DNA of 64,000 bases. Source: Gemmatimonadales bacterium (GTDB taxonomy: Bacteria; Gemmatimonadota; Glassbacteria; GWA2-58-10). Location of the stretch: contig JAJRTS010000058.1 in NCBI GenBank assembly GCA_024278175.1, positions 8,693 to 72,692 on the forward strand, in the 5' to 3' direction. A program made the translations under genes and the position numbers. This document shows, piece after piece, positions 16,984 through 57,030 of the stretch (within the stretch, counting starts at the first letter, position 1; each line of letters begins with the position of its first letter). The notes beneath the pieces are model-generated. The model did no database searches and was not told where the DNA came from. It worked only from the letters and a program-made list of their open reading frames with translations.

Positions 16984-17553
16984 CTATTGTCCCAGCAGCT
17001 CCGGGTCGAAAAGTTCCTTGATTTTGCCCATCAAGGGGTCTGTTTTGCATAACTGATCGAAACTTCCGGCCGGCAGGTTTTCAGCTTCATCGTTTCCGCT
17101 CCCGGTTTGTTCAACCGGCGGTTTGAAAGTCTCGATCTCGATCTCCACCGCGTCCAGAGAGAATACCTCGCCCACGCACCGGCCGATTTGTCGGCGGGTT
17201 TGCAGGTCCTGCAAGCGGGTGGCGCTGTAGCCCTCGGCCGGTACTCGCAACTTCAACGTCCGCCCATCGTATTGCGCCGGCTCCGCCACGGCGATCTGGG
17301 TTGCCAGCCCCGGCTTGGCCTGCCTGACCGCCGCTGTCACCGCGCTCCAGTTGGAGCGGATCGCCTCGACGTTCAGCGGCCCGTCCAGCTTGAGCGGTGA
17401 TGGCCGGGGCCGCTCAAGCTCTTCCGGCTCAGGTTCCGGCGGCGATGGCGCGCTGTGCCGCGGGGGTGGCTGGGCGGTCAGCCTGGGACCGCCCTCGGGC
17501 GGCCCGCCGGTGGAGCGGGGAGGCTCAGTTACGGCCGCGCTGTTTTTTTTTTA
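16984..17553 (-). CDS. dnaX: DnaX tau-specific C-terminal region (Pro-rich linker plus tau C-terminal domain) in +1/-2 frame relative to upstream dnaX
   Basis: Frame open from stop TAA (17551-53) through the A10 run to TAG at 16984; translation KKNSAAVTEPP...Pro-rich...NWSAMTAAVRQAKPGLATQIAVAEPAQYDGRTLKLRVPAEGYSATRL matches tau C-terminal domain. Confidence 0.55.
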
Positions 17554-19049: not shown

Positions 19050-20753
19050 TCAGTCGATCACCGGCAGCACGATATACGACGGGTATTTCTGATCGTGATA
19101 GACGGTTTGCGCGGCCTTGACCCAGCCGGTTTCCGTGGCGAAATCGTTGCCCGTGTTCAGGTTGCGGTCGAACCTGGGGAAGCTGCTGCTGGAGATTTCG
19201 ATCCTGACCATGTGCCCCTTTTTGAACAGGTTGGAGGTGGCCCAGAGGTCGATTTCGTACTTGTAGATCCGGCCGGGAACGATATTGGCCGGATCAGTCT
19301 GACCGTTGCGGAAACTGGCGCGGATAATCCCGTCGGCGATCTTGAACGCCCGCCCGTCGGGGTAAACGTCCACCAGCTTGGCGGTGAAATCCGTATTTTT
19401 AGCGCTGCTGGCCGCGTGCAGGATTACCTTGAGCGGGCCGGTGACCTCCAGATTTTTTTTCAGCGGCAAGGTTGTGTACACGAGCACATCCTCCCGGCTC
19501 TCAACCTCCCGCTGATCAGTGGGTTCCATCGGAGCCGAGGGCACCGGGTCCGCCGGGTCGTAGATGAACCGGTCGGGCGGGGAGCCGGCGTCTGCTTTGA
19601 GCTAAATTGCCCCATCGCCGCCCAGGTAGTAGTTGACATAGCGGGTGCGCGCCAGCGGCCACTCGTTTTCGAATCGCCACTGGTTGGCTCCCATCACGAA
19701 TATTTTCACCGGCGGTTCGCTTGCGATTTCGTCCTGCACGTCTTTGAGGTGGTAGTCGAACCAGCTCCGTCTGATTTCGCGGATTTTGAGCACCGACTGT
19801 TCGCCGAAATCGAGTTCGCCCACCCTGGGGCCCCGCGAGACGCCGTGGATCCAGGGGCCGATAATCAGCTTCTGCCTGGCCCTGACCTGTTCGGGGACCA
19901 CCCCGGAGGTCATCCCGATGAAATTTTGCAGAGTGCCCTGCAGGCAGATGTCGAACCAGCCGCCGACATTGCAGGCCGCCGCGGAAATTTTGTTATAGCG
20001 GCCGCGGATGGTGGTCCGGTCCCAGTACCTGTCGCGGGCGGGATGGGAAAGCCAGTCGCGCAGAAAAGGGATACGCCAGCCCAGCAGCCGGTCCTGCCCG
20101 ATCAGGGGCAGGGAGTAGAAAACCTGGTCGCGGGTCGAATCGAGATAATCCTGCGCAACAATGAACGGGGATGACATCTCGTGGCTCCAGCCGCTGAAAA
20201 GCCTCATGCGGAACGCGCCGCCCGAGTAAGCCATGTCGTGCAGGTCGCCGAAGCCCACCACCGGGAACATCGCCGTAACCCCCGGAGCGTTTTCCACCGC
20301 GGTGATCCACTGGGTATAGCCCACGTAGGAGCCGCCGATCGTGCCGATCCGCCCGTTGCACCAGGGCTGTTCTCCCAGCCAGAGCTGCGTATCGTAACCG
20401 TCCGGGCCCTCGTTTTGCATCGCGTCGAATACGCCCTCGCTCTCGAAGCGGCCGCGCACGTCCTGCAGCACCACGGCATAGCCCCGGGAGGCGAAATAGT
20501 GGCCCGTGTCGCTGCCCGGCCCCCCGTTGCCGTAGGGAGTGCGCATCAGCAGGGCCGGGAAGCGTCCCCGGGCATCGGGCCGGTAGATATTGGCCGAGAG
20601 CCGGACGCCGTCGCGAAGTTCCACTTTCACGTCCAGCTCCTCGATAACCGGGTACAGCGAGTCGGCGGCCCCGGCGACTGCGCGCTCGGGCGCAAGAGTC
20701 AGCAGGGGCAGGATAAGACACAGACGGAAAGCAAAACGCAACAGGCGGTTCAT
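19050..20753 (-). pseudogene. CocE/NonD family hydrolase (secreted), interrupted by a single in-frame TAG at 19602-19604; fragments 19602..20753 and 19050..19544
   Basis: N-terminal alpha/beta hydrolase part and C-terminal CocE_NonD domain are in the same frame; translation across the stop reads ...GGDGAI*LKADAGSPPDRFIYDPADPVP... Confidence 0.6.
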
Positions 20754-20815: not shown

Positions 20816-22294
20816 TCAGCGGTAGATCACGAACTCATTCAGCCCCGGCACGCCGCTGCCGCGCTGACGGGTGATTTCAAGCGTGTGTTTGCCCGGTTCC
20901 AGATCGTAAAACCAGAACAGGGGAGTGCGGCGCCTGCGGTAATCGCCTTCCAGGGTCACCGTTTCGATCACCTTGCCGTCGACCCTGACCTGGCAGCGCG
21001 CCGCTCCCTCGTCGTTCACCATCCGGCCGTTGACGACAAAGCCGCGGCCCTCGAACTCGATTGTCCAGCTTTTTTCCAGTTTGTGGCCGATATCCACCTT
21101 GCTCACCGGTTGCAGGTCCTCGAAAGCGACCTCGAGTGTTTCCGGGGCTTTGGGCTGCTGGACTTCGATTTTCCAGAGGCCATTGTCAACACTGCCCCCG
21201 CCGGCTACCACCAGCTCCCCGGCCAGCCGCATGTTGACCCGGTAGACGTCGGTAAGGCTGTAATCCGAGTAGCTGAACTTGAGGTTTTCCACCTTGTCCA
21301 GCCCGTCCAGCCACTTGGCGGGGATATTGCTCAGGCCGATCATCGCCCCCAGCACGCCGGCAGCGTTGGAGGGGTTGCAGTCGGAGTCGAACCCGCAGCG
21401 GGTGGAGATGTCCACCGTTTTGCCGAAGTCCCCGCCGCCGTAGAGCAGGCCGATAGCGATATAGGCCCCGTTGACCACGGCGTCGATATTGTACGAGTCA
21501 AGCACACCACCGGGACAACCGATGTCAGCGGCGTACTTTTTCTGGACCTGGAACCAGCATTCGCGCCAGTCGTCGGGGTACTGGCGCCACCAGTCCAGCA
21601 CGTCCCGGATGCAGCGGCGGTAGCGGCTGCCCTCGGGAAGGTTGAGCAGCGCTTTTTAGACCACGGTAACGATGTCTGTTTCCACGAAAGCATGGGAGTA
21701 CATCGCGGCCACGAACACGCCGCCGTAGACCCCGTCGCCGTAGTTCATGATATGGCCAACCTTGAGGGCGTAGTCCAGGGCGGTGGCGGGCATACCCGGG
21801 TTGATCAGGCCGATAAAGTCGCTTTCGATCTGGAAGTCGATATCATCGGCGTGGGGGTTGTTTTTCCAGTGCCCGCTCTCCGGCGGCATGATGCCGTTCA
21901 GGATATTCCAGCGCCCGGCCTGGTTGGCGTGCCAGAGGGTGAACCCGGCGTTGGCGTATTTTTTGGCCAATTCTTCAACAGGGGCATCCAGACCCTTATC
22001 GGCCAGCACGGCCAGGAACGCCAGGTCCATGTAGATATCGTCGTAGAGGCCCGGATTATCGGTGTAGTACTCCAGCATCATCTCCCCGTCCCAGCGCAGG
22101 GGGACCGACTGCTGGATCCAGGTCCCGTTCCAGCTGAACTCGGTGGGGCCGCCGTAGGTACAGCCCACCACCTGCCCGACCCAGCCGCCCTTGACCTTGT
22201 CGAGCATGACTTCCTCGCTGATCTCGACAGTACGGGCATTGGCGAGCAGGGGACAGGCCAGGGTAAACACGATCAATATCCCGAAAAATCGCAT
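20816..22294 (-). pseudogene. secreted ADP-ribosylglycohydrolase-family protein with C-terminal beta-domain, interrupted by a single in-frame TAA at 21656-21658; fragments 21656..22294 and 20816..21601
   Basis: Signal peptide; ARH N-half (GGWVGQVVGCTYGGPTEF) and C-half (CGFDSDCNPSNAAGVLGAMIG) in the same frame; ...VTVV*KALLNLPEGSRYRRCIRDVLDWW... Confidence 0.6.
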
Positions 22295-23418: not shown

Positions 23419-23807
23419 TTTTAAGCCGGCTCCGGTATAGAGGGGGAACTCGTTATGGGAGAAAAGAATTGAACCGCGGAAGTGGCGGTAATGCTATATT
23501 TCAGCTAAAGCGTCAGCGGCGCAAGGTTATTGTGGATTTTAGCACTCGAATCATCCGGGAACGGGTTGTTATGCTCTTATGGGCGGTAATATGGGCGGGC
23601 TATGGTTTCCAGTGAGTTATCCGTCGGTCCGGTTATTTTCAGCGGTAAGGTTGAAATCGGTTGAGCAATCGCACTATTATTGATAAGATTGTTTCAAATC
23701 ATCCTGATGGCAATAGTGTCAATATTGTATTCCTGCAACCAATTTTCCAACCGAGCCGCCGGGAGACGGAAGAATCAAAAGGCCGGTTGGCCGCTCAGCC
23801 AGTCCTA

Positions 23808-23885
23808 AGGGAGCGTGTTGATAAAACCGGTCGTCATGGGAAGTAAGCTGTCAAGGGGGCTGTTGAATGTTTTTGCAACGCCCTG
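23808..23885. repeat. internally deleted copy of the MITE-like repeat, overlapping the 5' end of the Na/Pi transporter ORF
   Basis: AGCGTGTTGAtAAA...CATGGGAAGTAA-GCTGTCAAGGGGGC joined to CTGTTGAATGTTTTTGCAACGCCCTG; TA flanks. Confidence 0.4.
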
Positions 23886-23908
23886 TAACCGCATTCAAAA
23901 GGATCGCC

Positions 23909-25798
23909 ATGATGAGTTTCAACTGCCAGTTTAGCCGGCTGTATCTGGAGCGGTATCGTCTGCGTAACGCCATGCTGGTGGTTGGCTTGTTAATTGTTTC
24001 GTCCGCGGCCGGTGCGATGGCGCTGGCCAAAGGAGTGGATGGGGAAACCTCCGGTGCGCTCGATTTGTGGACGATGAGCGTTGGTATGCTCGGCGGACTG
24101 GCGCTTTTCCTCTATGGCATGGAGCAGATGGCCGATGCGCTAAAGGCGCTGGCCGCCGACCGCCTTAAGGATATTCTGAAAAGACTGACTTCCAACCGCT
24201 TTATCGGCGCCATCACCGGCGCGCTGGTCACCGCCGTAATTCAGTCATCCTCGGTGACAACCGTGCTGGTAGTGGGCTTTATCAGCGCGGGTGTGCTCAC
24301 CGTATCGCAGGCCGTGGGGATTATTTTCGGGGCGAATATCGGCAGTACGTTTACCGCTCAGCTTATCGCATTCAAGGTGACCAAGCTGGCGCTGCTGATG
24401 GTTGCGGGCGGTTTTGCGATGCTTTTTATCTCCCGCAAGGATCGGGTAAAGCAATACGGGGCGATGATTATGGGGCTGGGCCTGGTGTTTTTCGGGATGA
24501 GCCTGATGAGCGATGCAATGAAGCCGCTGAGGACTTACAGCCCGTTTATAAATTTGATGACGCGCATGGAGATCCCAGTACTGGGCATCCTGGTCGGGGC
24601 GGTTTTCACTGGAATGATCCAGTCTTCGGCCGCGACAACCGGAGTGGTGATCGCGATGGCGAGCCAGGGACTGATCACCCTGACCGGCGGGATTGCGATC
24701 ATTTTCGGAGCCAATATCGGCACCTGTGCAACGGCGCTGCTGGCTTCGATCGGAAAACCGCGTAACGCTTTGAGGGCCAGTGTTATCCATATTTTGTTCA
24801 ATGTTCTGGGCGTGGTACTGTGGATGGGATTGATCGACAAGCTGGCGGAGCTGGTTAAGATTGTCTCTCCCGTTGCCCAGGGGCTTGCCGGTACGGAAAA
24901 GCTGGCGGCCGAGACGCCGCGCCAGATCGCCAACGCCCATAGTGTTTTCAATGTCGCCAATACGCTGATCTTTCTTCCGTTCGGACCGCTGTTCGCCCGG
25001 TTCGTCAACGTGATTTTACCGGACAAGGAAGTTGAGGTCGACGCCAAGACCGGTCTGGCCGTGGAGTTCAAAACAAAATTTATCGACAGGGATCTGCTGA
25101 CGGTCCCGTCGATAGCCCTCGAACAGGCGCGTAATGAAATAATACAGATGGCGGGGTTGGTCGAGGGGCTGATCAAAGATGTCATCCCCGGTTTTAAGAG
25201 CGGCGACCCGAAAACAGCGGAACTTATGTTGGCCAGAGAAGCGGAAATTAAATATCTGGGCAAGGAACTGGAGCAGTATCTGATCGAAATTTCCCGCTGC
25301 AATTTGAATCAACAGCAATCCGAATTAACCGCCCAGTATATGGATATCAACTCCGACCTGAAACACATCGGTAAAATAGTCAGGAAGGATTTTATAATGC
25401 TGCTTCACCGGAAAGTGGAGGCGGATGAGGTTTTTACAGCGGAAGAACAAGGCAAGATGTTGGAATACAATAAGATAATCATGGATAATTTGTCCAAGGC
25501 GATCCGGGCTTTTTCCGGGGACAACGCGCAACTGGCCAGGGAGGTAATCCGCGCCAAGCCGCTGGTAGTCAAGCAGCTCAGGGACTATCGGGCGCTACGT
25601 TTCGAGCTCTCCAAGGAGGAAAACGGTAAATCGGTCGCCAGCCGGGACGCCCATCTGGACCTGGCCGATTTTCTGCGCCGCGTTTACGCCTACTCGGAGG
25701 CGATCGCTTTTACGATGCTCGAGGGTTACCTGGACGGCAGAAAAGGAGAGGGAGAGCGTCCGGAGAAAAAAGAACTTGCCGTTGCCGAAGCGGTCTAG
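23909..25798 (+). CDS. Na/Pi cotransporter family protein with C-terminal PhoU-like domains
   Basis: Two Na_Pi_cotrans repeats (QSSSVTTVLVVGF / QSSAATTGVVIAMA) and PhoU-like C-terminus; start chosen at ATG 23909 (AAAAGGA RBS) because 23867-23908 lies inside the repeat remnant. Confidence 0.8.
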   Translation: MMSFNCQFSRLYLERYRLRNAMLVVGLLIVSSAAGAMALAKGVDGETSGALDLWTMSVGMLGGLALFLYGMEQMADALKALAADRLKDILKRLTSNRFIGAITGALVTAVIQSSSVTTVLVVGFISAGVLTVSQAVGIIFGANIGSTFTAQLIAFKVTKLALLMVAGGFAMLFISRKDRVKQYGAMIMGLGLVFFGMSLMSDAMKPLRTYSPFINLMTRMEIPVLGILVGAVFTGMIQSSAATTGVVIAMASQGLITLTGGIAIIFGANIGTCATALLASIGKPRNALRASVIHILFNVLGVVLWMGLIDKLAELVKIVSPVAQGLAGTEKLAAETPRQIANAHSVFNVANTLIFLPFGPLFARFVNVILPDKEVEVDAKTGLAVEFKTKFIDRDLLTVPSIALEQARNEIIQMAGLVEGLIKDVIPGFKSGDPKTAELMLAREAEIKYLGKELEQYLIEISRCNLNQQQSELTAQYMDINSDLKHIGKIVRKDFIMLLHRKVEADEVFTAEEQGKMLEYNKIIMDNLSKAIRAFSGDNAQLAREVIRAKPLVVKQLRDYRALRFELSKEENGKSVASRDAHLDLADFLRRVYAYSEAIAFTMLEGYLDGRKGEGERPEKKELAVAEAV

Positions 25799-25995
25799 GC
25801 AGAGATAATCCGGCCTTCGCCACGCAGCAAAACCCGCCGCAAGAGTTTGATCTCTTAAGATGGTGCCGGGAACCGGGAAATCCGGCGGACGGTTTTTGGA
25901 ATAATATTGGTAACAATTTATCACCTAGAGTCCGCAACCGATTCGTCAGCGCAAAAGTCTTCAATTCTCATCACTCCCGGAAGGGAACTGAACTT

Positions 25996-36577: not shown

Positions 36578-37495
36578 TCAATTCAGAAAACGGTAGGCCT
36601 GGTCGATAAACTCGGCGCCCACCACCAGGAACTCCTCCTGGCAGGCGGCCAGTTGCTTAAGCGCGGCGTCACGCTTGCTGATACTGGAATACAGCCCGAA
36701 AATCCCGCTTCCGCTGCCCGAGAGCAGCGCCACGGAGGCGCCCGAGTCGCGCAGCATTTCCTTGGCGTCGCGAAATTCGGGATAGTGCGCGTAGACCACC
36801 GGCTCGAAATCGTTGACCATCGTATCAAGCGGCCCCATCGGCCCGATAATCTCTTCCCAGCGCAACGGTCCCCCGTTGAGTTCCATGGTCTCGGTATTGT
36901 TGCCCTCGGCCTGGGCGTTGTCCAGCGCCCGGTAAGCCCAGGAGGTGGAGATCGGGATATGAGGGATAACCACCACCAGCGGGATTGTTTTTTTTACCGG
37001 CAGCCGCAGCATCCTCTCGCCGATACCCCAGGCCAGGGCGCGCCCGCCGCAGAGCATGAACGGCACGTCCGCGCCGACTTTCGCTGCCAGGGCATAGCGG
37101 GTGCTGTCGCCGCCGGGCAGCGTTCCGAACAGGCGTTCGCAGGCGATCATCACCCCGGCGGCGTCGGCGCTGCCTCCACCGAGCCCGGCGTGGGTGGGGA
37201 TGCCTTTCTCGATCCTGATCTCAACGCCGCGGTTTCTGATCCCCAGGCGCTTCAGGCACAGCCGGGCGGCCTTGTGCGCGGTGTTGTCCTCGTCCACGGG
37301 CACATGGGGCGAGTCGCAGTGGATGATTATCTTGCCGGGGGTGGGGGTGATCGTCAGTGTGTCCGAGAGCGACACGTTCTGGAAGACGGTTTCCAGCGAA
37401 TGGTAGCCGCCCTCCAACAGCCCCAGGATGCGAAGGGACAGGTTGATCTTGGCGAAGACTTCGATCTTGAGAGTCGTGTTGTTGACTTCGGGCAT
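36578..37495 (-). CDS. ispE: 4-diphosphocytidyl-2-C-methyl-D-erythritol kinase
   Basis: GHMP kinase motif PTHAGLGGGSADAAG; KINLSLRI N-terminus; ATG 37495 with AAAGGA RBS. Confidence 0.85.
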   Translation of the reverse strand: MPEVNNTTLKIEVFAKINLSLRILGLLEGGYHSLETVFQNVSLSDTLTITPTPGKIIIHCDSPHVPVDEDNTAHKAARLCLKRLGIRNRGVEIRIEKGIPTHAGLGGGSADAAGVMIACERLFGTLPGGDSTRYALAAKVGADVPFMLCGGRALAWGIGERMLRLPVKKTIPLVVVIPHIPISTSWAYRALDNAQAEGNNTETMELNGGPLRWEEIIGPMGPLDTMVNDFEPVVYAHYPEFRDAKEMLRDSGASVALLSGSGSGIFGLYSSISKRDAALKQLAACQEEFLVVGAEFIDQAYRFLN

Positions 37496-37512
37496 AGACG
37501 GTCCTTTCGGGG

Positions 37513-38568
37513 TCATCCGGCCTGCACGGTGAAAGGGGCCGGATCCGGTTTGTCGTCGATATGCTCGGCGCTTCTGCGCAACTGGCCGAGGGTCATGCCT
37601 TCCCTGCCCATCGCAATCAGTCCGCCCACGGTTACCGGGGCCATCATCAGGAGATGCATCACCACGGCGAACGCCGCCGCATCGTCGTTGGGCAGACCAA
37701 AGCCCGAACTGAGTGAATAGACTATCGCCCAGTGCATCGGTCCCACGAAGGCGGGAGCCGAGGGCAGCGCCACGCCCAGGCCTATCATGCCAAGTGTGAA
37801 AAACGGCGCTATCCATGGCAGCGTGTCGAAACTGAAACCGGCGAATGCCAGCCGGTAGCTGAACACTACCATGCCCCAGTGAACGATGCTCAGGACGCTT
37901 ACCTTGAGCAACACGTCCCCGTTGCGCAGGATTTTCATCCCCTCGCTGAACATGCCCATGAAGCTCTGTACTTTGTCCAGAAACCGGGCGGGCATGAACC
38001 AGCCGGTGAACTTGACCACGGCTTTTTCCGCCGAATGGGGAAAACTCCCCAGTACCATTAATACTATTATAAGAAAAAGAAGCGAGCCTGCAAGGGCATA
38101 ATAAAGCGCGCCGGGGATTTTCAGCATCGTGGGCGCGAAACCCGCGCTGAATGTAAACGGTATCATCAGGCACAACAGGATACTGATAGAGTCGAAAATT
38201 CGCTCGATCAGCAATGAAGCCAGGATGTAGCTGATATGTGCGTCCACCTTGCGGCGGGCGACAATTGCGCGGACGGCCTCGCCGATTCTAAGCGGCAGAA
38301 TGTTGTTGGTGGTAAAGCCGATCAGGTTGGCTGTGGCCAAGCCGTTGGTTGTGGCGTGGTGTTCGGGTTTGTAGAGATATTTCCAGCGCCAGCCCCGCAC
38401 CCACATCACGGCCAGGCTGAGAGCGCTGAATCCGGCCAGCGGCAGGATTCTGATCCGCTCTCCGCTGGTGATTATCTGCCAGGCCCTGTCCAGGTCCACG
38501 CCTTTGAAGGCCACATAGAGGCATACCGAGGTTATCAGCAGCGCGACCAGGTATTTCAATATTTTCAT
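37513..38568 (-). CDS. flippase-like/lysylphosphatidylglycerol-synthase TM-domain (UPF0104) membrane protein
   Basis: 351 aa polytopic protein with LPG_synthase_TM-like topology; upstream of ispE in the same operon. Confidence 0.65.
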   Translation of the reverse strand: MKILKYLVALLITSVCLYVAFKGVDLDRAWQIITSGERIRILPLAGFSALSLAVMWVRGWRWKYLYKPEHHATTNGLATANLIGFTTNNILPLRIGEAVRAIVARRKVDAHISYILASLLIERIFDSISILLCLMIPFTFSAGFAPTMLKIPGALYYALAGSLLFLIIVLMVLGSFPHSAEKAVVKFTGWFMPARFLDKVQSFMGMFSEGMKILRNGDVLLKVSVLSIVHWGMVVFSYRLAFAGFSFDTLPWIAPFFTLGMIGLGVALPSAPAFVGPMHWAIVYSLSSGFGLPNDDAAAFAVVMHLLMMAPVTVGGLIAMGREGMTLGQLRRSAEHIDDKPDPAPFTVQAG

Positions 38569-45499: not shown

Positions 45500-45871
45500 A
45501 TGCCTCGCGGAAAAGTCAAATGGTTTAACGACGCCAAAGGCTACGGATTCATCGAGCAGGAATCGGGTAGCGACATTTTTGTTCATTACACTGCAATTAC
45601 CATGGAGGGTTTCAAGACCCTGGCCGAGAACCAGGCTGTCGAGTACGAGGTGGTGGAGGGCCCGCGCGGTCCCCAGGCCGCCAACGTGTCCGCGGCCGAG
45701 GACGATGCCGACGGCGCAGAGTCCGCCGATGACGTCGGACAGTCCGCTGACGAGTCTGAAGCCGAAGCCGAAGAAGATGATGATCAGGACGACGGCGAAG
45801 AAGCAGAAGCAGAAGAAGTAGAAGAAGCAACAGCAGAAGAAGAAGAAGAAGCAACAGAAGAAGAAAGCTAA
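45500..45871 (+). CDS. cold-shock-domain protein with ~57-aa poly-acidic C-terminal tail
   Basis: [20 protein letters not shown]...RNP1/RNP2 motifs, then E/D/A-rich tail; long 5'UTR; CAGGAG RBS. Confidence 0.85.
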
Positions 45872-45939: not shown

Positions 45940-46184
45940 ATCCCGCCCGTTGTGCCGCAAATGGGGTATGAATGCCTTATTAGTTCCATCCTCTCCGGCG
46001 TGGCTGTATCGGCCGCTGCTTGCCAACCTCCTTCCGGCAAGGGTCTTTACCGGCGGCAGTGGTTTGGGAAATGCTCTGGCACGGGCCTTGTAAAGGATAA
46101 TTCAGCGGTCCCTGCCGTTACCCGCCCTCCCGGGGGCCCGGCGATGGATTGCACCCCCTCACAACTTGCAGGAGCGGGAACCGG

Positions 46185-47126
46185 ATGATACAACTCGACA
46201 GGGTTAACAAGTTCTACGGTGATCTGCACGCGCTCAAGGACATCACCTTCCGGATTAACAAGGGAGAGATTGTCGGTTTTCTCGGGCCCAACGGTGCGGG
46301 CAAGACCACCACGATGAAAATCCTCAATGGCTTCATGCCCGCCAGCAGCGGCAGCGCCGAGGTCGCCGGCTTCCAGGCGGACAAAGATCCGCTGGAAATA
46401 AAGCGGCGGATTGGATACCTGCCGGAAAATGTGTCGCTCTACATGGACATGACTGTCAACGAATACCTTCGTTTCGTGGCCAGAGCCAAGCGCGTGCCGC
46501 GCCGTGAGTTGCGCGCCAAGGTGGACCGCGTGGCGGGCCAGTGCGGCCTGACCGATGTCACCAACCGGCTGATCGGCAGCCTCAGCAAGGGCTACCGCCA
46601 GCGGGTCGGCCTGGCCCAGTCCATTGTCAGCGACCCGGAAGTGCTGATCATGGACGAGCCCACAACCGGGCTGGACCCGGCCCAGATAGTGGAGATCCGC
46701 AACCTGATCAAATCGTTCGCCGGTGAGCACACGATTATCCTCAGCACCCACATTCTCCAGGAAGTGAGCGCCATCTGCGAGCGCGTGATCATTATCAACG
46801 ACGGCCGGATCGTGACCGAGGACTCGCTGGAAAACCTCACCCGTTCGGCGGACAAGGGCGGCAACGTGCTGGTACGCGTGCAGGGTGATATCGCGGCTCT
46901 GCGTAAGTGCCTCCAGCAGCTCGATGGCGTGACCGGGGTGCGCGAGACCGGGGAAAGGGCCGCCGGGGACGAGTGGGAACTGCTGGTGGCGGCCGACAAG
47001 GACAGCGACATCCGCCGCGCCGTGGCCGAGAGTGTTGTCGGGGCCGGCTGCGGGCTGCTTGAGCTGAGGCCGATCAGGCTCAGCCTGGAGGAGATTTACA
47101 TCCAGACTATCACCCGGAACGCTTAG
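46185..47126 (+). CDS. gldA: gliding-motility-type ABC transporter ATP-binding protein GldA-like
   Basis: Walker A GPNGAGKTT, signature LSKGYRQRV, Walker B LIMDEPT; followed by ABC-2 permease. Confidence 0.8.
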   Translation: MIQLDRVNKFYGDLHALKDITFRINKGEIVGFLGPNGAGKTTTMKILNGFMPASSGSAEVAGFQADKDPLEIKRRIGYLPENVSLYMDMTVNEYLRFVARAKRVPRRELRAKVDRVAGQCGLTDVTNRLIGSLSKGYRQRVGLAQSIVSDPEVLIMDEPTTGLDPAQIVEIRNLIKSFAGEHTIILSTHILQEVSAICERVIIINDGRIVTEDSLENLTRSADKGGNVLVRVQGDIAALRKCLQQLDGVTGVRETGERAAGDEWELLVAADKDSDIRRAVAESVVGAGCGLLELRPIRLSLEEIYIQTITRNA

Positions 47127-47141
47127 GAGAGCCGACGTACG

Positions 47142-47888
47142 ATGAACTTTCTACCTGTATACGTCAGGGAACTGCGCAGCTATTTCACCTCGCCCGTGGC
47201 CTACGTGGTGATGTTGTTCTTCCTGCTGCTGACCGGTGTGTTTTTCATGGTCTTTGTCGGCGATTTCAGCATGGCCTCGATGAATCCGAATCCCTATGGA
47301 GGGGCGCGTTCGCTGAATGTCACCCAGGCCGTGGTGCGGCCGTTGCTGGGCAACATGAGCGTTATCCTGCTGTTCGTCATGCCGCTGATCACGATGAAGC
47401 CGTTCGCCGAGGAGAAAAAGTCAGGCACCGCCGAGTTGCTTTTTACCTTTCCGCTCAGCGACCTGGACCTGCTGCTGGGCAAGTACCTGGCGGCGTTGAG
47501 CCTGTTTGCGGCGATGTTGGCCCTGACGCTGATCTTCCCCATGTTTATCGCCATCTACTCGGAGCCTGAGATGGGCACGCTGATCAGCGGATACCTGGGA
47601 CTGGTGCTGATGAGTATGGCGTTTATCGCCCTGGGCCTGTTTATCTCCTCGCTGACCGAGAACCAGATTATCGCGGCTATCGCCACGTTCGCCATGCTGC
47701 TCATTTTCTGGATTATCCAGTGGACCGGCAATAACCCGGTGCTGCGCCATCTCTCGGTGCTGGAGCATTTCAACAATTTCGCCCAGGGTCTGATCGACAC
47801 GCGCGACGTGGTCTACTACCTCAGCTTCACGCTTTTGTGGATGTTTCTCACGCTACGGGTGCTGGAATCGAAAAAGTGGAGAGGATAG
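47142..47888 (+). CDS. gldF: ABC-2 family permease GldF-like
   Basis: 248 aa 6-TM ABC-2 permease downstream of gldA. Confidence 0.75.
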   Translation: MNFLPVYVRELRSYFTSPVAYVVMLFFLLLTGVFFMVFVGDFSMASMNPNPYGGARSLNVTQAVVRPLLGNMSVILLFVMPLITMKPFAEEKKSGTAELLFTFPLSDLDLLLGKYLAALSLFAAMLALTLIFPMFIAIYSEPEMGTLISGYLGLVLMSMAFIALGLFISSLTENQIIAAIATFAMLLIFWIIQWTGNNPVLRHLSVLEHFNNFAQGLIDTRDVVYYLSFTLLWMFLTLRVLESKKWRG

Positions 47889-47893
47889 CATAA

Positions 47894-49492
47894 ATGGCTG
47901 CCAGTAAATTCGCATTGTTCGTTGCAGGGGTGCTGCTGCTGATCGCCGGCTACATCCTCCAGACAGTTCAGCTTGGGCTGGGTCTCTGGCCCGTGCTGGC
48001 CTACGGCGCGGGAGTGGCCCTGCTGGGTTGGTATGTGGTTGCCAACCGCTCTGAACTGCTGAAGATAATCACCGGGCGCGGAACGCGTTACGGCGCGGCC
48101 AGCCTGGCGATGACGGTCGGCTTTATCGGGATCCTGGTGATGGCTGCCCTGCTCAGTGAAAAACATCACTACCGCCTGGACCTGACCGAGAGCCAGACCC
48201 ACACTATCGCCCTGCAGAGCAGGCAGATGCTCGACAAGCTGGAGCAGGACACCCTTAATCTGAAAATGTACGTGTTCTACCGCGGCGAGTCCGGCCTGCG
48301 CAGCAAGCAGGGCCTGACCGACCTGCTGGACACATATAAATACTACAGCGATCGCTTCAGCTACGAGCTGGTGGATATCGACCGCAACCCGCTGCTGGCC
48401 ATGCAACTGGGGATTACCAGCACCAGCGCGATGATTCTCACCTACGGCGAGCGCCAGGAGAAAATCTACTCCGAGCAGGAAGCCAAGATCACCCAGGCTA
48501 TCGCCGGCCTGCTGGACTCCGGCACGGCGGCGGGCCGGGCCGGGACGATGTTCTACCTCACCGGTCACGGAGAGCCCTCGCTCCAGCCCAGCGAGGGCTA
48601 CAGCATGAGCGAGGCTGCCGCCGCGATCAAAGAACAGCTCGGCCCGGTGAGCAAGCTGGTGCTGGCCGGCGGACAGAGCGTGCCGGACACGGCCGAGGTG
48701 CTGATTGTCGCCGGACCCCGGACCGACCTTCTGCCCGCTGAGTTGAGTGCCATCGAGCGCTATCTCGCAGGCGGCGGCAGCGTGCTGTTCATGGTCGAGC
48801 CGTACATGGCCGATTCGCTGGGCGCGTTCCTGGCCCGCTACGGCGTAGCAGTGGGCAACGATGTGGTGATCGACATGCTCAAGGGTGCGCCGGGCACGCC
48901 GTTCGCATTTCTTGCCGACGACTACCCGGCCCACGATATCACCCGTTTTTTCGAGGTCGGGGCCGTGTTCGACATGGCTCGCTCGGTTAAGCCGGCCGAT
49001 CCGCCGGTAGCGGGGGCCACGGTGAATATCCTGGTGCGCAGCAGCGATAAGAGCGTGGCCGAGAGCGACCCGCAAAAGCTGCAGGCCGATTTCGGCGCGG
49101 TGGTGGACAGCGCGATGAATAACGGCGCGCCCGTGCCGCTGGCCGTGGCGGTAACGCTTTCGGGTAAACCTGGTTCTCCCGCTGACTCGACTGTTGCCGG
49201 TCAGGGTGCGGACGGTAAAAAATCGCGGCTGGTGGTGTTCGGCGACCGTCACCTGTTTATCGACGGCTACCTGGGCCAGCTCGGCAACCGCGACCTTCTG
49301 CTCAACACTCTGCGCTGGCTGGGCGGCCAGGCCGATGAGATCACGATTGCCCCCAAACAGAGCGCCGACACTCCGCTCGTGCTGCGCGAGGGGCAGTTGA
49401 TGCTGATCTCGCTGGTGAGCGTGGTGGTCCTGCCGCTGGTTGTTATTTTCATCGGCGTTTTCGTCTGGCTTCGCAGGAGGGCCAAGCGATGA
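47894..49492 (+). CDS. gldG: GldG-family ABC transporter auxiliary component
   Basis: N- and C-terminal TM anchors with large periplasmic domain; gldA-gldF-gldG order. Confidence 0.75.
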   Translation: MAASKFALFVAGVLLLIAGYILQTVQLGLGLWPVLAYGAGVALLGWYVVANRSELLKIITGRGTRYGAASLAMTVGFIGILVMAALLSEKHHYRLDLTESQTHTIALQSRQMLDKLEQDTLNLKMYVFYRGESGLRSKQGLTDLLDTYKYYSDRFSYELVDIDRNPLLAMQLGITSTSAMILTYGERQEKIYSEQEAKITQAIAGLLDSGTAAGRAGTMFYLTGHGEPSLQPSEGYSMSEAAAAIKEQLGPVSKLVLAGGQSVPDTAEVLIVAGPRTDLLPAELSAIERYLAGGGSVLFMVEPYMADSLGAFLARYGVAVGNDVVIDMLKGAPGTPFAFLADDYPAHDITRFFEVGAVFDMARSVKPADPPVAGATVNILVRSSDKSVAESDPQKLQADFGAVVDSAMNNGAPVPLAVAVTLSGKPGSPADSTVAGQGADGKKSRLVVFGDRHLFIDGYLGQLGNRDLLLNTLRWLGGQADEITIAPKQSADTPLVLREGQLMLISLVSVVVLPLVVIFIGVFVWLRRRAKR

Positions 49493-51276
49493 GTACCGCC
49501 CGCAGGCCGCTGATTTACCTCGGTGTGTTCCTGGCCCTGGCCCTGTTCTACTATTTCTACGAGCACAAGGGTGGGATCGAGCGCGCCGAGCTTGAGCAGC
49601 AGGCGAAAAAAGCCCTGCTCTTCAGCCCGGACAGCGCCGCCGAGCTGAGCATCACCACGGCCAGAGGCACGCTCAGCCTGGAGCGCTCTGGCCAGGGCTG
49701 GGTGCTGCTCTCGCCGGTGCGAGCCGCCGCCGACAGCGAAGCGGTGGCGCGCCTACTGCGCAGCGCAGCGGACGCCGCCCACGACCGCGTGGTGGAAGAC
49801 TCCGCCGCCGATCTCTCCATTTACGGGCTGGACCGGCCGCAACTGACTTTCAGCGTCACTGCGCGCGGCGACAGCGCAGCTCAAATCCTGGAACTGGGTA
49901 ACAAGAACCCCGGCGAAACCTATATTTACGCCCGTAACCTGGAGCGGCCCTCGCGGGTGGTGCTGCTCAACGGCTGGCTGCTGGGCGATCTGGACAGAAC
50001 CGCGTTCCAGTTGCGCGACAAGCGTTTGCTCCGGTTCGATAAGGACGGGATCGAGCGTCTGACAGTAACCGACAAGAATGGGAAGGTGCTGGAGATTGCG
50101 CGCAGTGGTGATCGCTGGAATCTGCGAACACAGCAAAGAACACGGCAAAAATACCGGGCCGACCCGGACAGTGTGGATGCCATGCTGGACAAGCTGGCCG
50201 AAGCCGAGGCCGTGGGTTTTATCGACGAGCCTCCGCAGCAGTGGGAGGAGCTCTACCACCTCGATGAGCCGCTGCTGACAGTGTTGCTGGCCGAGGCCGA
50301 TGGCGGTGCGACACACGTCCTCTTTTTAGGCGCGCGCGATACCAGCGGTAATTATTACGCCGCGCGGCCGGGAGCGATGGATAACGTATTCCTGGCCGAC
50401 GGCGGGTTGTTCGACCTGTTCTCCGGCGACTTCTCACGCCTGCGCAGCATGGCGCTGGTTGGAGTGGAACGTGACAGTATTACGAGTGTCGGTTACAGCG
50501 GTGGCGATGGCAACTGGGCAGCGGTCCGAAGCAGTGCGGGGGAGTGGAGTTTTTCCGAGCCGGCCGGTGAGCGGCTGGACCAGGCCGGGCTGGATAATTT
50601 CCTCTACGACCTGCTGGACGCCCGGGCAGATTCTTTCGTCGGGGGGGAGCCGGGCGGTGAGCGCGGGTTGCCGCACAACCCGGATTTCACGGTCGGTTTT
50701 ACCGCGGGTGGCGCCCAGAGCCGGATCGCGTTCGCCTATGACGGGGGTACCGGAACCTACCGCGCGGCCGGAAATTCATTCGAGGGTATCGCTGTGGTCG
50801 ACAGTGCCGAGTCGGCCAAGCTGAATAAAAAACTCGAACAGATGAAGTATCGCAAGGTGGTGGAATTTGTTACCGGCGCAGTGGACAGGGTTGTTATCGA
50901 GCGGCCGGGCAGCCCCGCGTTGGAACTGGCGGGCGGCGAGGGCCAGTGGCGGGTAACCGCCCCGCGGGAGCTTGCGGCAGCGAGCTGGAAAGTGCAGAAC
51001 CTGCTCTGGAAGCTGATCGACGTCCAGTACGAGCGGGTGCTGAGCGGCAGCGCGGCGGACAACTCCGCCTTCGGGTTCGATTCCCCGTCCGTTGCTCTGA
51101 GCCTCTATCAGGGCGACAGCCTGACCGTGCGGGTGCTGCTGGGCGAACCCGTGGACGGTGGTGGGAATACCAAGCTGGTGGCCCTGCGCACCTCGGCCGA
51201 TACGCGCACTTTCGCTGTCGACGCCGCGATCCTGGCCGAGATTCCGGAGGAGCCCGAGGCTTTTACGGAAAACTGA
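49489..51276 (+). CDS. DUF4340 domain protein (GldG-associated)
   Basis: N-terminal TM anchor, repeated beta-rich modules; overlaps gldG stop (ATGA). Confidence 0.65.
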   Translation: MSTARRPLIYLGVFLALALFYYFYEHKGGIERAELEQQAKKALLFSPDSAAELSITTARGTLSLERSGQGWVLLSPVRAAADSEAVARLLRSAADAAHDRVVEDSAADLSIYGLDRPQLTFSVTARGDSAAQILELGNKNPGETYIYARNLERPSRVVLLNGWLLGDLDRTAFQLRDKRLLRFDKDGIERLTVTDKNGKVLEIARSGDRWNLRTQQRTRQKYRADPDSVDAMLDKLAEAEAVGFIDEPPQQWEELYHLDEPLLTVLLAEADGGATHVLFLGARDTSGNYYAARPGAMDNVFLADGGLFDLFSGDFSRLRSMALVGVERDSITSVGYSGGDGNWAAVRSSAGEWSFSEPAGERLDQAGLDNFLYDLLDARADSFVGGEPGGERGLPHNPDFTVGFTAGGAQSRIAFAYDGGTGTYRAAGNSFEGIAVVDSAESAKLNKKLEQMKYRKVVEFVTGAVDRVVIERPGSPALELAGGEGQWRVTAPRELAAASWKVQNLLWKLIDVQYERVLSGSAADNSAFGFDSPSVALSLYQGDSLTVRVLLGEPVDGGGNTKLVALRTSADTRTFAVDAAILAEIPEEPEAFTEN

Positions 51277-51526: not shown

Positions 51527-51805
51527 ATGTTCGATAACTTTTTGGGGTTGGTCCGCCAGATCGACTGGACGGGTTATCAGGTTTCGGTTTTCGAGATACT
51601 GCTGGTTGTATTCGCCCTGCTGCGGAAGTTCAACGTCCTCTCGCTGCTCATTCTGGGCATCGTGCTGGGCAAGGGTTTTTACGTGGTCCAGCAGAACACC
51701 GATTTCAGCGGCGCACTGATCGATACGACCCCGTTTATCGTCTATTCGGTCTGCTCGCTGATCTTTTTTATTTACGCCGTGGTCAAACTGTTCACGATGG
51801 ATTAA
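51527..51805 (+). CDS. small hypothetical membrane protein (92 aa)
   Basis: AAGGAGG RBS; three hydrophobic segments. Confidence 0.45.
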   Translation: MFDNFLGLVRQIDWTGYQVSVFEILLVVFALLRKFNVLSLLILGIVLGKGFYVVQQNTDFSGALIDTTPFIVYSVCSLIFFIYAVVKLFTMD

Positions 51806-51823
51806 CCGCCGGATGGGCCGGCT

Positions 51824-52312
51824 TTGCCTGGGTGGGTTAATCATCAGTTGCACGAGGGAAGATTGCAGATTAAAAAAATCCTGTTTTTCAGCAATTCGCC
51901 GGATACGGCAGGATTCTGCCGCAGGATACTGGGCGCGGGCTACGAACTGGTCAGTGTGACGATGGAGCAGGATGCTGCTGAAAGCGCCGGAGAACATCAA
52001 CCGAATCTTGTGATTATCGATCTTGAAGCAAGGCGCGAACGGGGATTCGAGCTATGCAGTGAGCTTACCGGCGATGCGCCGGTGATGGTGCTGTTTGACC
52101 GGGACGACCACGACACGGCCGAGAGGGCGCTGGCCCTGGGCGCGGCGGCTTTTTCCTTCAAGCCGGTCATTCCCGCCCTGTTCGCCAAGCGCGTGCAGAC
52201 CGCGATCGAGCGTTTTTCCGCCAGGCAGCCCCGCTGTCCTCGCTGCCGCCGGCCGATGAGGCCGGAGTGGTCGTTCTGCCCGTTCGACGGCAGCGGGCTC
52301 CCGCAAGGGTAA
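51824..52312 (+). CDS. receiver (CheY-like) domain protein with C-terminal C4 zinc ribbon
   Basis: KILFFSNSPD...VIIDLE...KP receiver-like layout; CPRCRRPMRPEWSFCPFDG ribbon; start uncertain. Confidence 0.5.
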   Translation: MPGWVNHQLHEGRLQIKKILFFSNSPDTAGFCRRILGAGYELVSVTMEQDAAESAGEHQPNLVIIDLEARRERGFELCSELTGDAPVMVLFDRDDHDTAERALALGAAAFSFKPVIPALFAKRVQTAIERFSARQPRCPRCRRPMRPEWSFCPFDGSGLPQG

Positions 52313-55491: not shown

Positions 55492-57030
55492 ATGAGATTA
55501 AAAGTGAGCAACAGGCTTTGCAGATATCTGACCGCGCTGGCGGCGGGGTTGCTGCTGGCGGCCCCGGCCGGGCGCTGCAGCGACAACGCTCCGGCCAATC
55601 CCCGTCTGGAGAAGAGGGTGCTGGCTGTTCTGGAGCGCTATGGCGAGGACCCGGCCGGTTGGGGGGTGCAGGTCAGGTCACTGGAGCGGGGCGACGACCT
55701 GGTGCATCTGAACAGGGGACGGCGCTACATGCCGGCCAGCAACCTCAAGCTGTTGGTCACGGCCGTGGCGCTCGACCGTCTGGGCGCCGATTACCGCTGG
55801 CGGACCACGGTGATGGCCGACGGAGCGGTGGACACCGCCGGTGTGCTCGACGGAGACCTGGTGCTGCGCGGCAGCGGCGACCCGTCAATCTCCAACCGTT
55901 TCTGGCCCGAGGTCCAGTCCGCCTGGGACAGCCTGGCCGCCCAGGTGGCCGCCGCCGGGATCAGCCGGGTGAGCGGCTCTCTGCTGGCGGACAACTCGTT
56001 GTTCAAGCCCCCCTTTCTGGCCAAAGGCTGGGGCTGGGAGGACCTGGCCTGGTGGTACGCCGCCCCGGCCAGCGCCCTGAGCTACAACGACAACACGATC
56101 GACGTACAGGTGTGGCCCGCCCGTGGCGTGGGTAAAAAACCGCGGGTGGAGATCAAACCCGCTAACTCGCTGTTCACGATCGCCAACAGGGCTGTCACCG
56201 TGGCCCGCAGAATCGACAGCCGTCTGGAGATCAGCCGCGAGACCCCCGGCGGATAAATCTCGCTGGGCGGAGGCATTTACCGCGGTAGCCTGGGTTATCT
56301 GGAACACGTGGCGGTCGATGACCCCGGCAGGTTCGCCGCTGATGCGCTGGCCGATGCGCTGGCCCGGCGCGGGATCAGGATCGACGGGTCGGTGCGGGTG
56401 CTGGGTTATGAGGATGGCGCTCCGGCCTATCTCGACCGCTCGCCATCGCTGGTCGGGCAGATCTCAAGCCCGCCGCTGACCGAGATCGTGAAGGTGATCA
56501 ACAAACGCAGCCACAATTTTTACGCGGAGCAACTGCTGTTTACCTTGGGAGCGGTGGCGGGGAGCGAGGGCAGTTTCGCGGGCGGGATCGACGTGGAGCG
56601 GCGGGTGCTCACACGCCTGGGCGTGGATACGCGCCAGATTCGCCTGGAGGACGGCTCGGGCCTCTCGCGGCTCAACCTGGTGACAACCGAGATGTTCGTG
56701 CGGTTGCTGGCCTGGATGGACACTCACCAGTTGCGCGAGCAGTTTGTCGCCAGTCTGCCGGTGGCGGGCCGCGACAACGGGGTGCGCCGCTTGCGCGACA
56801 CGCGGGCCGCCGGGCGGCTGTTCGCCAAGACCGGCTATATTACATCCGTAATGGCGCTCTCGGGATATACCTGGACCGGCGACGGTGATAAAGTGGCGTT
56901 CTCGCTGCTGGGGAACAACTGGTTGATGCCCAAAGCCAGGGCGAGGCGGATTATCAGGGACCTTTGTCTGGAAATAGTGCGGTCACGGCGACCGGTGGGG
57001 ATTTCGGACGAGCTGGAACTCAGGCCATGA
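55492..57030 (+). pseudogene. dacB: D-alanyl-D-alanine carboxypeptidase/endopeptidase DacB (peptidase S13, PBP4), interrupted by a single in-frame TAA at 56254-56256
   Basis: N-part PASNLKL (SxN-K-like) and C-part KTGYITSVMALSGY (KTG) in the same frame; ...ETPGG*ISLGGGIYRGSLGYLEHVAVDDPGRF... Confidence 0.6.

Follow-up and report, generated by a model that had tools for sequence, protein, structure and literature searches.

A secreted CocE/NonD hydrolase gene whose frame stays open beyond a single in-frame TAG raises the question of whether the gene was inactivated very recently, has been mis-assembled, or is read through. The gene lies in a 64,000-nt stretch of DNA (the window) from an uncultured Glassbacteria/Gemmatimonadota-like bacterium, and the original prediction left these three options side by side. 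Of the three, very recent inactivation is the best supported, with intact orthologues, low dN/dS and a deletion in its favor, while read-through by codon reassignment is excluded. We consider it probable that the locus once encoded a secreted CocE/NonD serine hydrolase and is now a true pseudogene, formed recently in evolutionary terms. The coordinates on which the argument draws are collected in the table.

Table. Features of the disrupted CocE/NonD gene and of the other interrupted or frame-broken genes (positions refer to the window)
Feature	Position	Strand	Basis or remark
CocE/NonD (peptidase S15) hydrolase gene, disrupted	19050..20753	-	567 aa in conceptual translation; intact orthologues have 576 aa
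Probable Sec signal peptide, MNRLLRFAFRLCLILPLLTLAPERAVA/GA	20673..20753	-	read from the translation
Peptidase_S15 alpha/beta-hydrolase catalytic domain	19842..20612	-	Pfam, aa 48-304, E 7.8e-58
Candidate catalytic triad: Ser142; Asp268; His303	20328-20330; 19950-19952; 19845-19847	-	within the Peptidase_S15 domain
PepX_C / CocE domain-III jelly-roll	19071..19724	-	Pfam, aa 344-561, E 1.1e-49
Junction of 27-nt (9-codon) in-frame deletion	19617..19625	-	DNA alignment with L001-L003
Premature TAG, codon 384	19602..19604	-	between ...YYLGGDGAI and LKADAGSPPDRFIYDPADPVP... (also given as LKADAGSPPDRF...)
ADP_ribosyl_GH gene, secreted; TAA at 21656-21658 (Glu GAA to TAA)	20816..22294	-	orthologues intact, 492 aa
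Peptidase_S13 gene (PBP4/DacB-type D-Ala-D-Ala carboxypeptidase); TAA at 56254-56256 (Gln CAA to TAA)	55492..57030	+	orthologue P0127 intact, 546 aa
dnaX A10 run at frame break	17543-17552	-	site with following sequence, 17525-17552

Translated as a whole, the disrupted gene comprises 567 sense codons, interrupted by one stop and closed by a TGA (19050-19052), and homology is continuous on both sides of the TAG, which upholds the prediction of one CocE/NonD frame broken only at that codon. The conceptual translation is recognized as a full-length member of the family: its match to TIGR00976 (CocE_NonD, NCBIfam) reaches 431.5 bits, where the cutoff is 66.3, and extends over positions 1-548 of the 550 in the model; both Pfam domains, PF02129 and PF08530, are present. 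As called, the ORF (P0002, 383 aa) spans only positions 1-346 of the 550 in TIGR00976, and the window thus holds no uninterrupted ORF with both the catalytic and the C-terminal jelly-roll domain, as a functional CocE/NonD member would have. Within the catalytic domain, the Ser142 of GGSYVG (the GxSxG serine), the Asp268 of GGWFD, and the His303 of GPWIH are invariant in our homologue alignment and align to the matching CocE motifs, giving the gene the Ser/Asp/His triad of a CocE/NonD hydrolase. The N terminus of the product carries a probable Sec signal peptide, as judged from the translation. With the 90%-identical intact orthologue P0121 as query, the closest solved structure is that of the Rhodococcus cocaine esterase (1JU3/3IDA), to which it aligns from end to end with an E value of about 1e-112.

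Intact 576-aa orthologues are found at three related loci, at 79-92% nucleotide identity and in the gene order of the window. These are L001 (GCA_054474335.1; 79% nucleotide identity), whose 576-aa orthologue P0001 is 77% identical, L002 (GCA_054474455.1), with 92% nucleotide identity at the CocE/NonD gene, and L003, a Logan assembly of SRR33956860. The order common to the three loci runs from a membrane protein through ADP-ribosylglycohydrolase, CocE/NonD, dnaX, ybaB, and recR onward, and the genes that are interrupted in the window are intact at all three. P0121 itself (576 aa, from GCA_054474455.1 and Logan SRR33956860) belongs to the 90% cluster of the window's 383-aa fragment. Among the GTDB r232 representatives scanned, there is no close relative, the best matches reaching 58-59% in Prolixibacteraceae and Gemmatimonadales MAGs; the lineage is absent from that set of representatives. 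By the similarity of its DnaK, the organism falls close to Candidatus Glassbacteria / Gemmatimonadota. The related loci also differ in content around a Na/Pi cotransporter gene at 23867-25798(+), which the window shares with the more distant L001. The closest, L002, lacks it and has about 200 nt in place of about 2.1 kb of the window (23683-25820).

The original prediction placed the stop between the two domains of the protein. The domain boundaries instead put the TAG about 40 residues inside PepX_C. The downstream frame is open as described, but its length was understated: 183 codons follow the TAG, and the 164 given earlier count from the first GTG. In the DNA alignment, the TAG column holds GCG (Ala) in L002 and L003 and ACG (Thr) in L001; the stop is two substitutions from either codon, and no intermediate is seen. 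Across 120 homologues, the residue replaced by the stop falls in a variable, polar column (D in 67, N in 20, and S in 19). The codons just past the TAG differ densely from those of the relatives, in a loop that is variable throughout the family. A templated or complex-event origin for this cluster of substitutions was considered and rejected, as searching the window with the 64-nt region by short-word BLAST gave chance matches only.

The same alignment reveals a second lesion that the earlier reading had missed. Five codons ahead of the TAG lies the junction of a 27-nt in-frame deletion, which takes out the initial S-x-G-x-A-N-T-L-x segment of the beta domain. This block is kept in all 120 homologues, with G in 115, A in 119, N in 117, and T or S in 115 of them. 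The ends of the deletion have a CGGCG microhomology in common, and the junction can be placed only to within a few bases. Both lesions sit near the N-terminal end of PepX_C, leaving about 180 residues of that domain untranslated.

Two further genes in the window have internal stops, which confirms the predicted total of three interrupted genes. The first encodes a secreted ADP-ribosylglycohydrolase and adjoins the CocE/NonD gene upstream in the same orientation. The outgroup L001 fixes GAA as the ancestral codon at its stop, and the substitutions clustered around this stop are mostly changes on the L002 branch, the window agreeing with L001. The second encodes the PBP4-type carboxypeptidase; here, the 30 nt on each side of the TAA are identical to those of the intact 546-aa orthologue. 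A single substitution in the ancestral codon accounts for each of the two TAA stops. The original prediction called this number unusually many for 64 kb, which holds only mildly. Three nonsense-interrupted genes in about 55 lie at the upper end of normal and are not extraordinary, pseudogenes typically making up about 1-5% of genes in free-living bacteria.

To date the interruptions, dN/dS was computed between the window and its closest relative. For the CocE/NonD gene, the ratio is 0.19 over the 383 codons before the TAG and 0.24 over the 183 after it, in agreement with the earlier statement that the downstream part is well conserved. On the two sides of their stops, the ADP-ribosylglycohydrolase gene has ratios of 0.25 and 0.30 and the PBP4 gene 0.22 and 0.17, while intact neighbors range from 0.04 to 0.30 in 20 of 21 cases. 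Such low ratios imply that purifying selection acted on the downstream parts through almost the whole period since the lineages diverged, and any inactivation is therefore recent. The CocE/NonD gene has one stop, no frameshift, and a functional-like dN/dS downstream; it shows no accumulated decay, and its disabling lesion is missing from the orthologues of close relatives, which is the pattern of a recent (unitary) pseudogene. Low downstream dN/dS would also fit a gene that is still translated in full, a point to which we return below. The one neighbor outside the range is a DUF4340 gene at 49489-51276(+), with a dN/dS of 0.41 and 72% amino acid identity to its orthologue over an alignment with 24 gap columns; its neighbors in the same ABC-transporter-like cluster are 93-98% identical, and the gene is fast-evolving or recombined.

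Broken genes were sought across the window in two ways: by tblastn with about 38 orthologous proteins from relatives, and by a window-wide scan for stops flanked on both sides by coding-type codon composition. Among the approximately 38 genes covered by tblastn, no internal stop or frameshift appears beyond the three stop-broken genes and the frame change in dnaX. The composition scan yields the three interrupted genes, one true gene pair, and antisense shadows. Several apparent breaks proved to be something else. The overlapping ORFs at 36578-38173 and 37513-38568, a candidate frameshift, are separate genes for a GHMP kinase and an LPG_synthase_TM protein. The ORFs at 46101-47126 and 47127-47888, which form one frame across a TAG, are likewise two genes, one for an ABC ATPase and one for its permease. 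The frame change seen at 51527-51840, in a gene for a small membrane protein, is a lesion of the relative: in the related MAG GCA_054474455.1 (L004, 5876-6190), a 1-nt insertion shifts the frame of a gene that is intact in the window, so lesions or errors occur in the assemblies of the relatives as well. Finally, the short match of a cold-shock-like gene at 45500-45871(+) reflects only a difference in the length of its acidic tail. This cold-shock-domain protein has a long Glu/Asp-rich tail, which is about 60 residues shorter than that of its counterpart at L064 9740-10300, a difference that is a repeat-length polymorphism.

How far the consensus can be trusted decides the first alternative, namely that the gene is intact and that the TAG, perhaps with both TAAs, reflects errors of base calling or polishing, or else a variant of a minority strain that entered the MAG consensus. 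We judge such an assembly or consensus artefact unlikely, although it has several points in its favor. The window comes from a single NCBI contig of 90,490 bp from an uncultured organism, for which no independent copy was found. There are no exact protein matches on record for the 383-aa fragment (P0002), the neighboring 359-aa gene, or the 212-aa ADP-ribosylglycohydrolase fragment; patterns of the CocE and PBP4 flanks with NNN in place of the stop have 0 exact matches in the JGI metagenome contigs scanned; and the window's own fragments occur in the protein collection solely as products of that contig. The A10 run of dnaX, where relatives have A9, is a homopolymer difference of the kind that assemblers get wrong, and the apparent 1-nt frameshift in L004 indicates that the assembly batch is not error-free. 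Also counting against a recent pseudogene are that the TAG is read from a single consensus sequence, that the intermediate between GCG or ACG and TAG is unobserved, and that three nonsense changes with zero frameshift pseudogenes are a slightly odd mix for natural decay.

Against these points stands the rarity of errors elsewhere. A random substitution in coding sequence generates a stop in only about 4-5% of cases, and three stops would imply dozens of substitution errors in 64 kb together with many indels, whereas the approximately 38 genes align to their orthologues without another stop or frameshift. Because neither these alignments nor the composition scan contains any other break, random sequencing error is an unlikely source of the three stops. 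The microhomology at the ends of the 27-nt deletion is a biological signature, unlike a base-calling error, and the three stops fall in exported, dispensable genes, two of them neighbors, while none of the many core genes is hit. We infer that the cells themselves carry the CocE/NonD stop, and that it is more than a feature of the consensus.

A second alternative accepts the stop and supposes that the gene is still expressed in full, whether by read-through, a suppressor tRNA, pyrrolysine at TAG, partial reassignment of TAA and TAG, or as two separate halves. This we regard as very improbable. It would account for the open frame and low dN/dS over the 183 codons past the TAG, and for the use of only TAA or TAG as internal stops in three genes that each terminate in TGA. 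TGA is, however, the commonest stop in the window, ending 21 of 32 genes with orthologue-matched C-termini (against 6 for TAA and 5 for TAG), so three TGA terminators are unremarkable. Global or partial reassignment of TAA and TAG is excluded because TAA (6) and TAG (5) stop genes exactly where their orthologues end; neither codon is unused at conserved gene ends, and 11 such ends use one or the other. Nor would a single amino acid serve, as the TAG corresponds to Ala or Thr (D, N, or S family-wide) and the TAAs to Glu and Gln. The 64-kb window contains no tRNA genes, suppressor tRNAs included. The reassignment version can be taken as largely refuted already. Read-through of the TAG would yield a product still without the conserved GxANT segment, and in the version with two halves the second would have no obvious initiation, since no Shine-Dalgarno-like sequence with a start codon follows the TAG in the window sequence.

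Very improbable, too, is that the three interrupted genes remain alive through conditional low-level or regulated stop suppression, for which a suppressor tRNA or leaky release factor 1 elsewhere in the Glassbacteria-like genome could be the source and which, if true, would let the cell gate its production of periplasmic enzymes, or that the cluster marks early genome erosion.

Under the recent-pseudogene reading, two lesions within about 20 nt disable the gene at the start of the C-terminal jelly-roll domain. A 27-nt deletion between short CGGCG direct repeats, in the pattern of replication slippage, would have removed the family-wide motif, and the TAG nonsense codon stands five codons further on. 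Read with the standard code, the gene would yield an exported protein of 383 aa, ended by the stop at codon 384. The signal peptide and the Ser-Asp-His catalytic domain would be retained and the beta (jelly-roll) domain lost. In the CocE structure, the jelly-roll or beta domain packs against the catalytic domain. The truncated product would most likely be unstable or misfolded, and degraded or inactive. Independent single-base nonsense changes would have disabled the adjacent ADP-ribosylglycohydrolase gene and the PBP4-type carboxypeptidase gene, 35 kb away. All three genes encode exported, dispensable enzymes, and two are adjacent in one transcription unit; hits in such genes are as expected, because random mutations are tolerated only in non-essential genes.

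The frame break in dnaX, which had been counted as a further case of interruption, is a distinct phenomenon, a conserved slippery-run site. The run lies just after DnaX domain III and consists of nine As in L001, L002 (at about 7640), and L003, against ten in the window. The sequence that follows it, CGTAACTGA, is conserved in an otherwise variable linker and contains overlapping TAA and TGA; in CAGCGCGGCCGTAACTGA, conserved after A9, the TAA and TGA close both alternative frames within 4-5 codons. Translated in silico, nine As give a tau-like product of 578 aa, ten As a product of 398 aa, and eleven As one of 397 aa. A long A run past domain III, nearby stops in the alternative frames, and conservation among relatives are what characterizes a site of the Thermus type, and transcriptional slippage at an A9 run in dnaX of Thermus thermophilus was reportedly described by Larsen et al. 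in 2000. From its sequence, the site looks like a tau/gamma transcriptional-slippage site of this type, conserved in the Glassbacteria-like lineage. Production of tau from the window's dnaX would then depend on slippage, barring an assembly error as the source of the extra A; the A10 may be a feature of the lineage, with tau made from slipped transcripts, or a homopolymer error. The dnaX break is no evidence of poor assembly or of genome decay.

Taken together, these results point most probably to an ordinary pseudogene of recent origin in a known enzyme family, rather than to a novel feature or a case of unusual decoding. Protein databases now list the CocE/NonD locus as two hydrolase ORFs of 383 and 164 aa (P0002 and P0122); it should be annotated as a CocE/NonD-family pseudogene with an internal stop and an in-frame deletion. 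Pseudogenes with an "internal stop" are a class flagged by NCBI PGAP. An altered genetic code, a tempting wrong reading of the locus, is removed. If all three stops are real, the MAG documents the recent loss of a few periplasmic hydrolases in one Glassbacteria-like lineage, which would be a minor point for the comparative genomics of the group and of little import beyond annotation.

The closest characterized counterpart of the protein is CocE of Rhodococcus sp. MB1 (TIGR00976; MEROPS S15), with which it shares an alpha/beta-hydrolase domain bearing the GxSxG serine, the aspartate, and the histidine, followed by a PepX_C jelly-roll; the CocE triad is numbered Ser117/Asp259/His287. Unlike CocE, the window copy has a stop at codon 384 and lacks nine residues of the GxANT segment, which CocE itself keeps as GSGAANTST. 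The signal peptide of the window's protein is a further difference from CocE, and nothing points to cocaine esterase activity specifically. The dnaX site resembles that of T. thermophilus, whose tau and gamma arise by transcriptional slippage at nine As (PMC1088944), in the relatives' A9 after domain III and in the stops that close both alternative frames. It differs in the window's A10, with which standard decoding would give the short, gamma-like product. With ordinary nonsense pseudogenes, the CocE/NonD locus shares one premature stop in a conserved frame, intact copies in close relatives, a dispensable function, and the absence of long decay; it does not differ from them in kind, and the local density of three in about 55 genes, two of them adjacent, is high but within the normal range.
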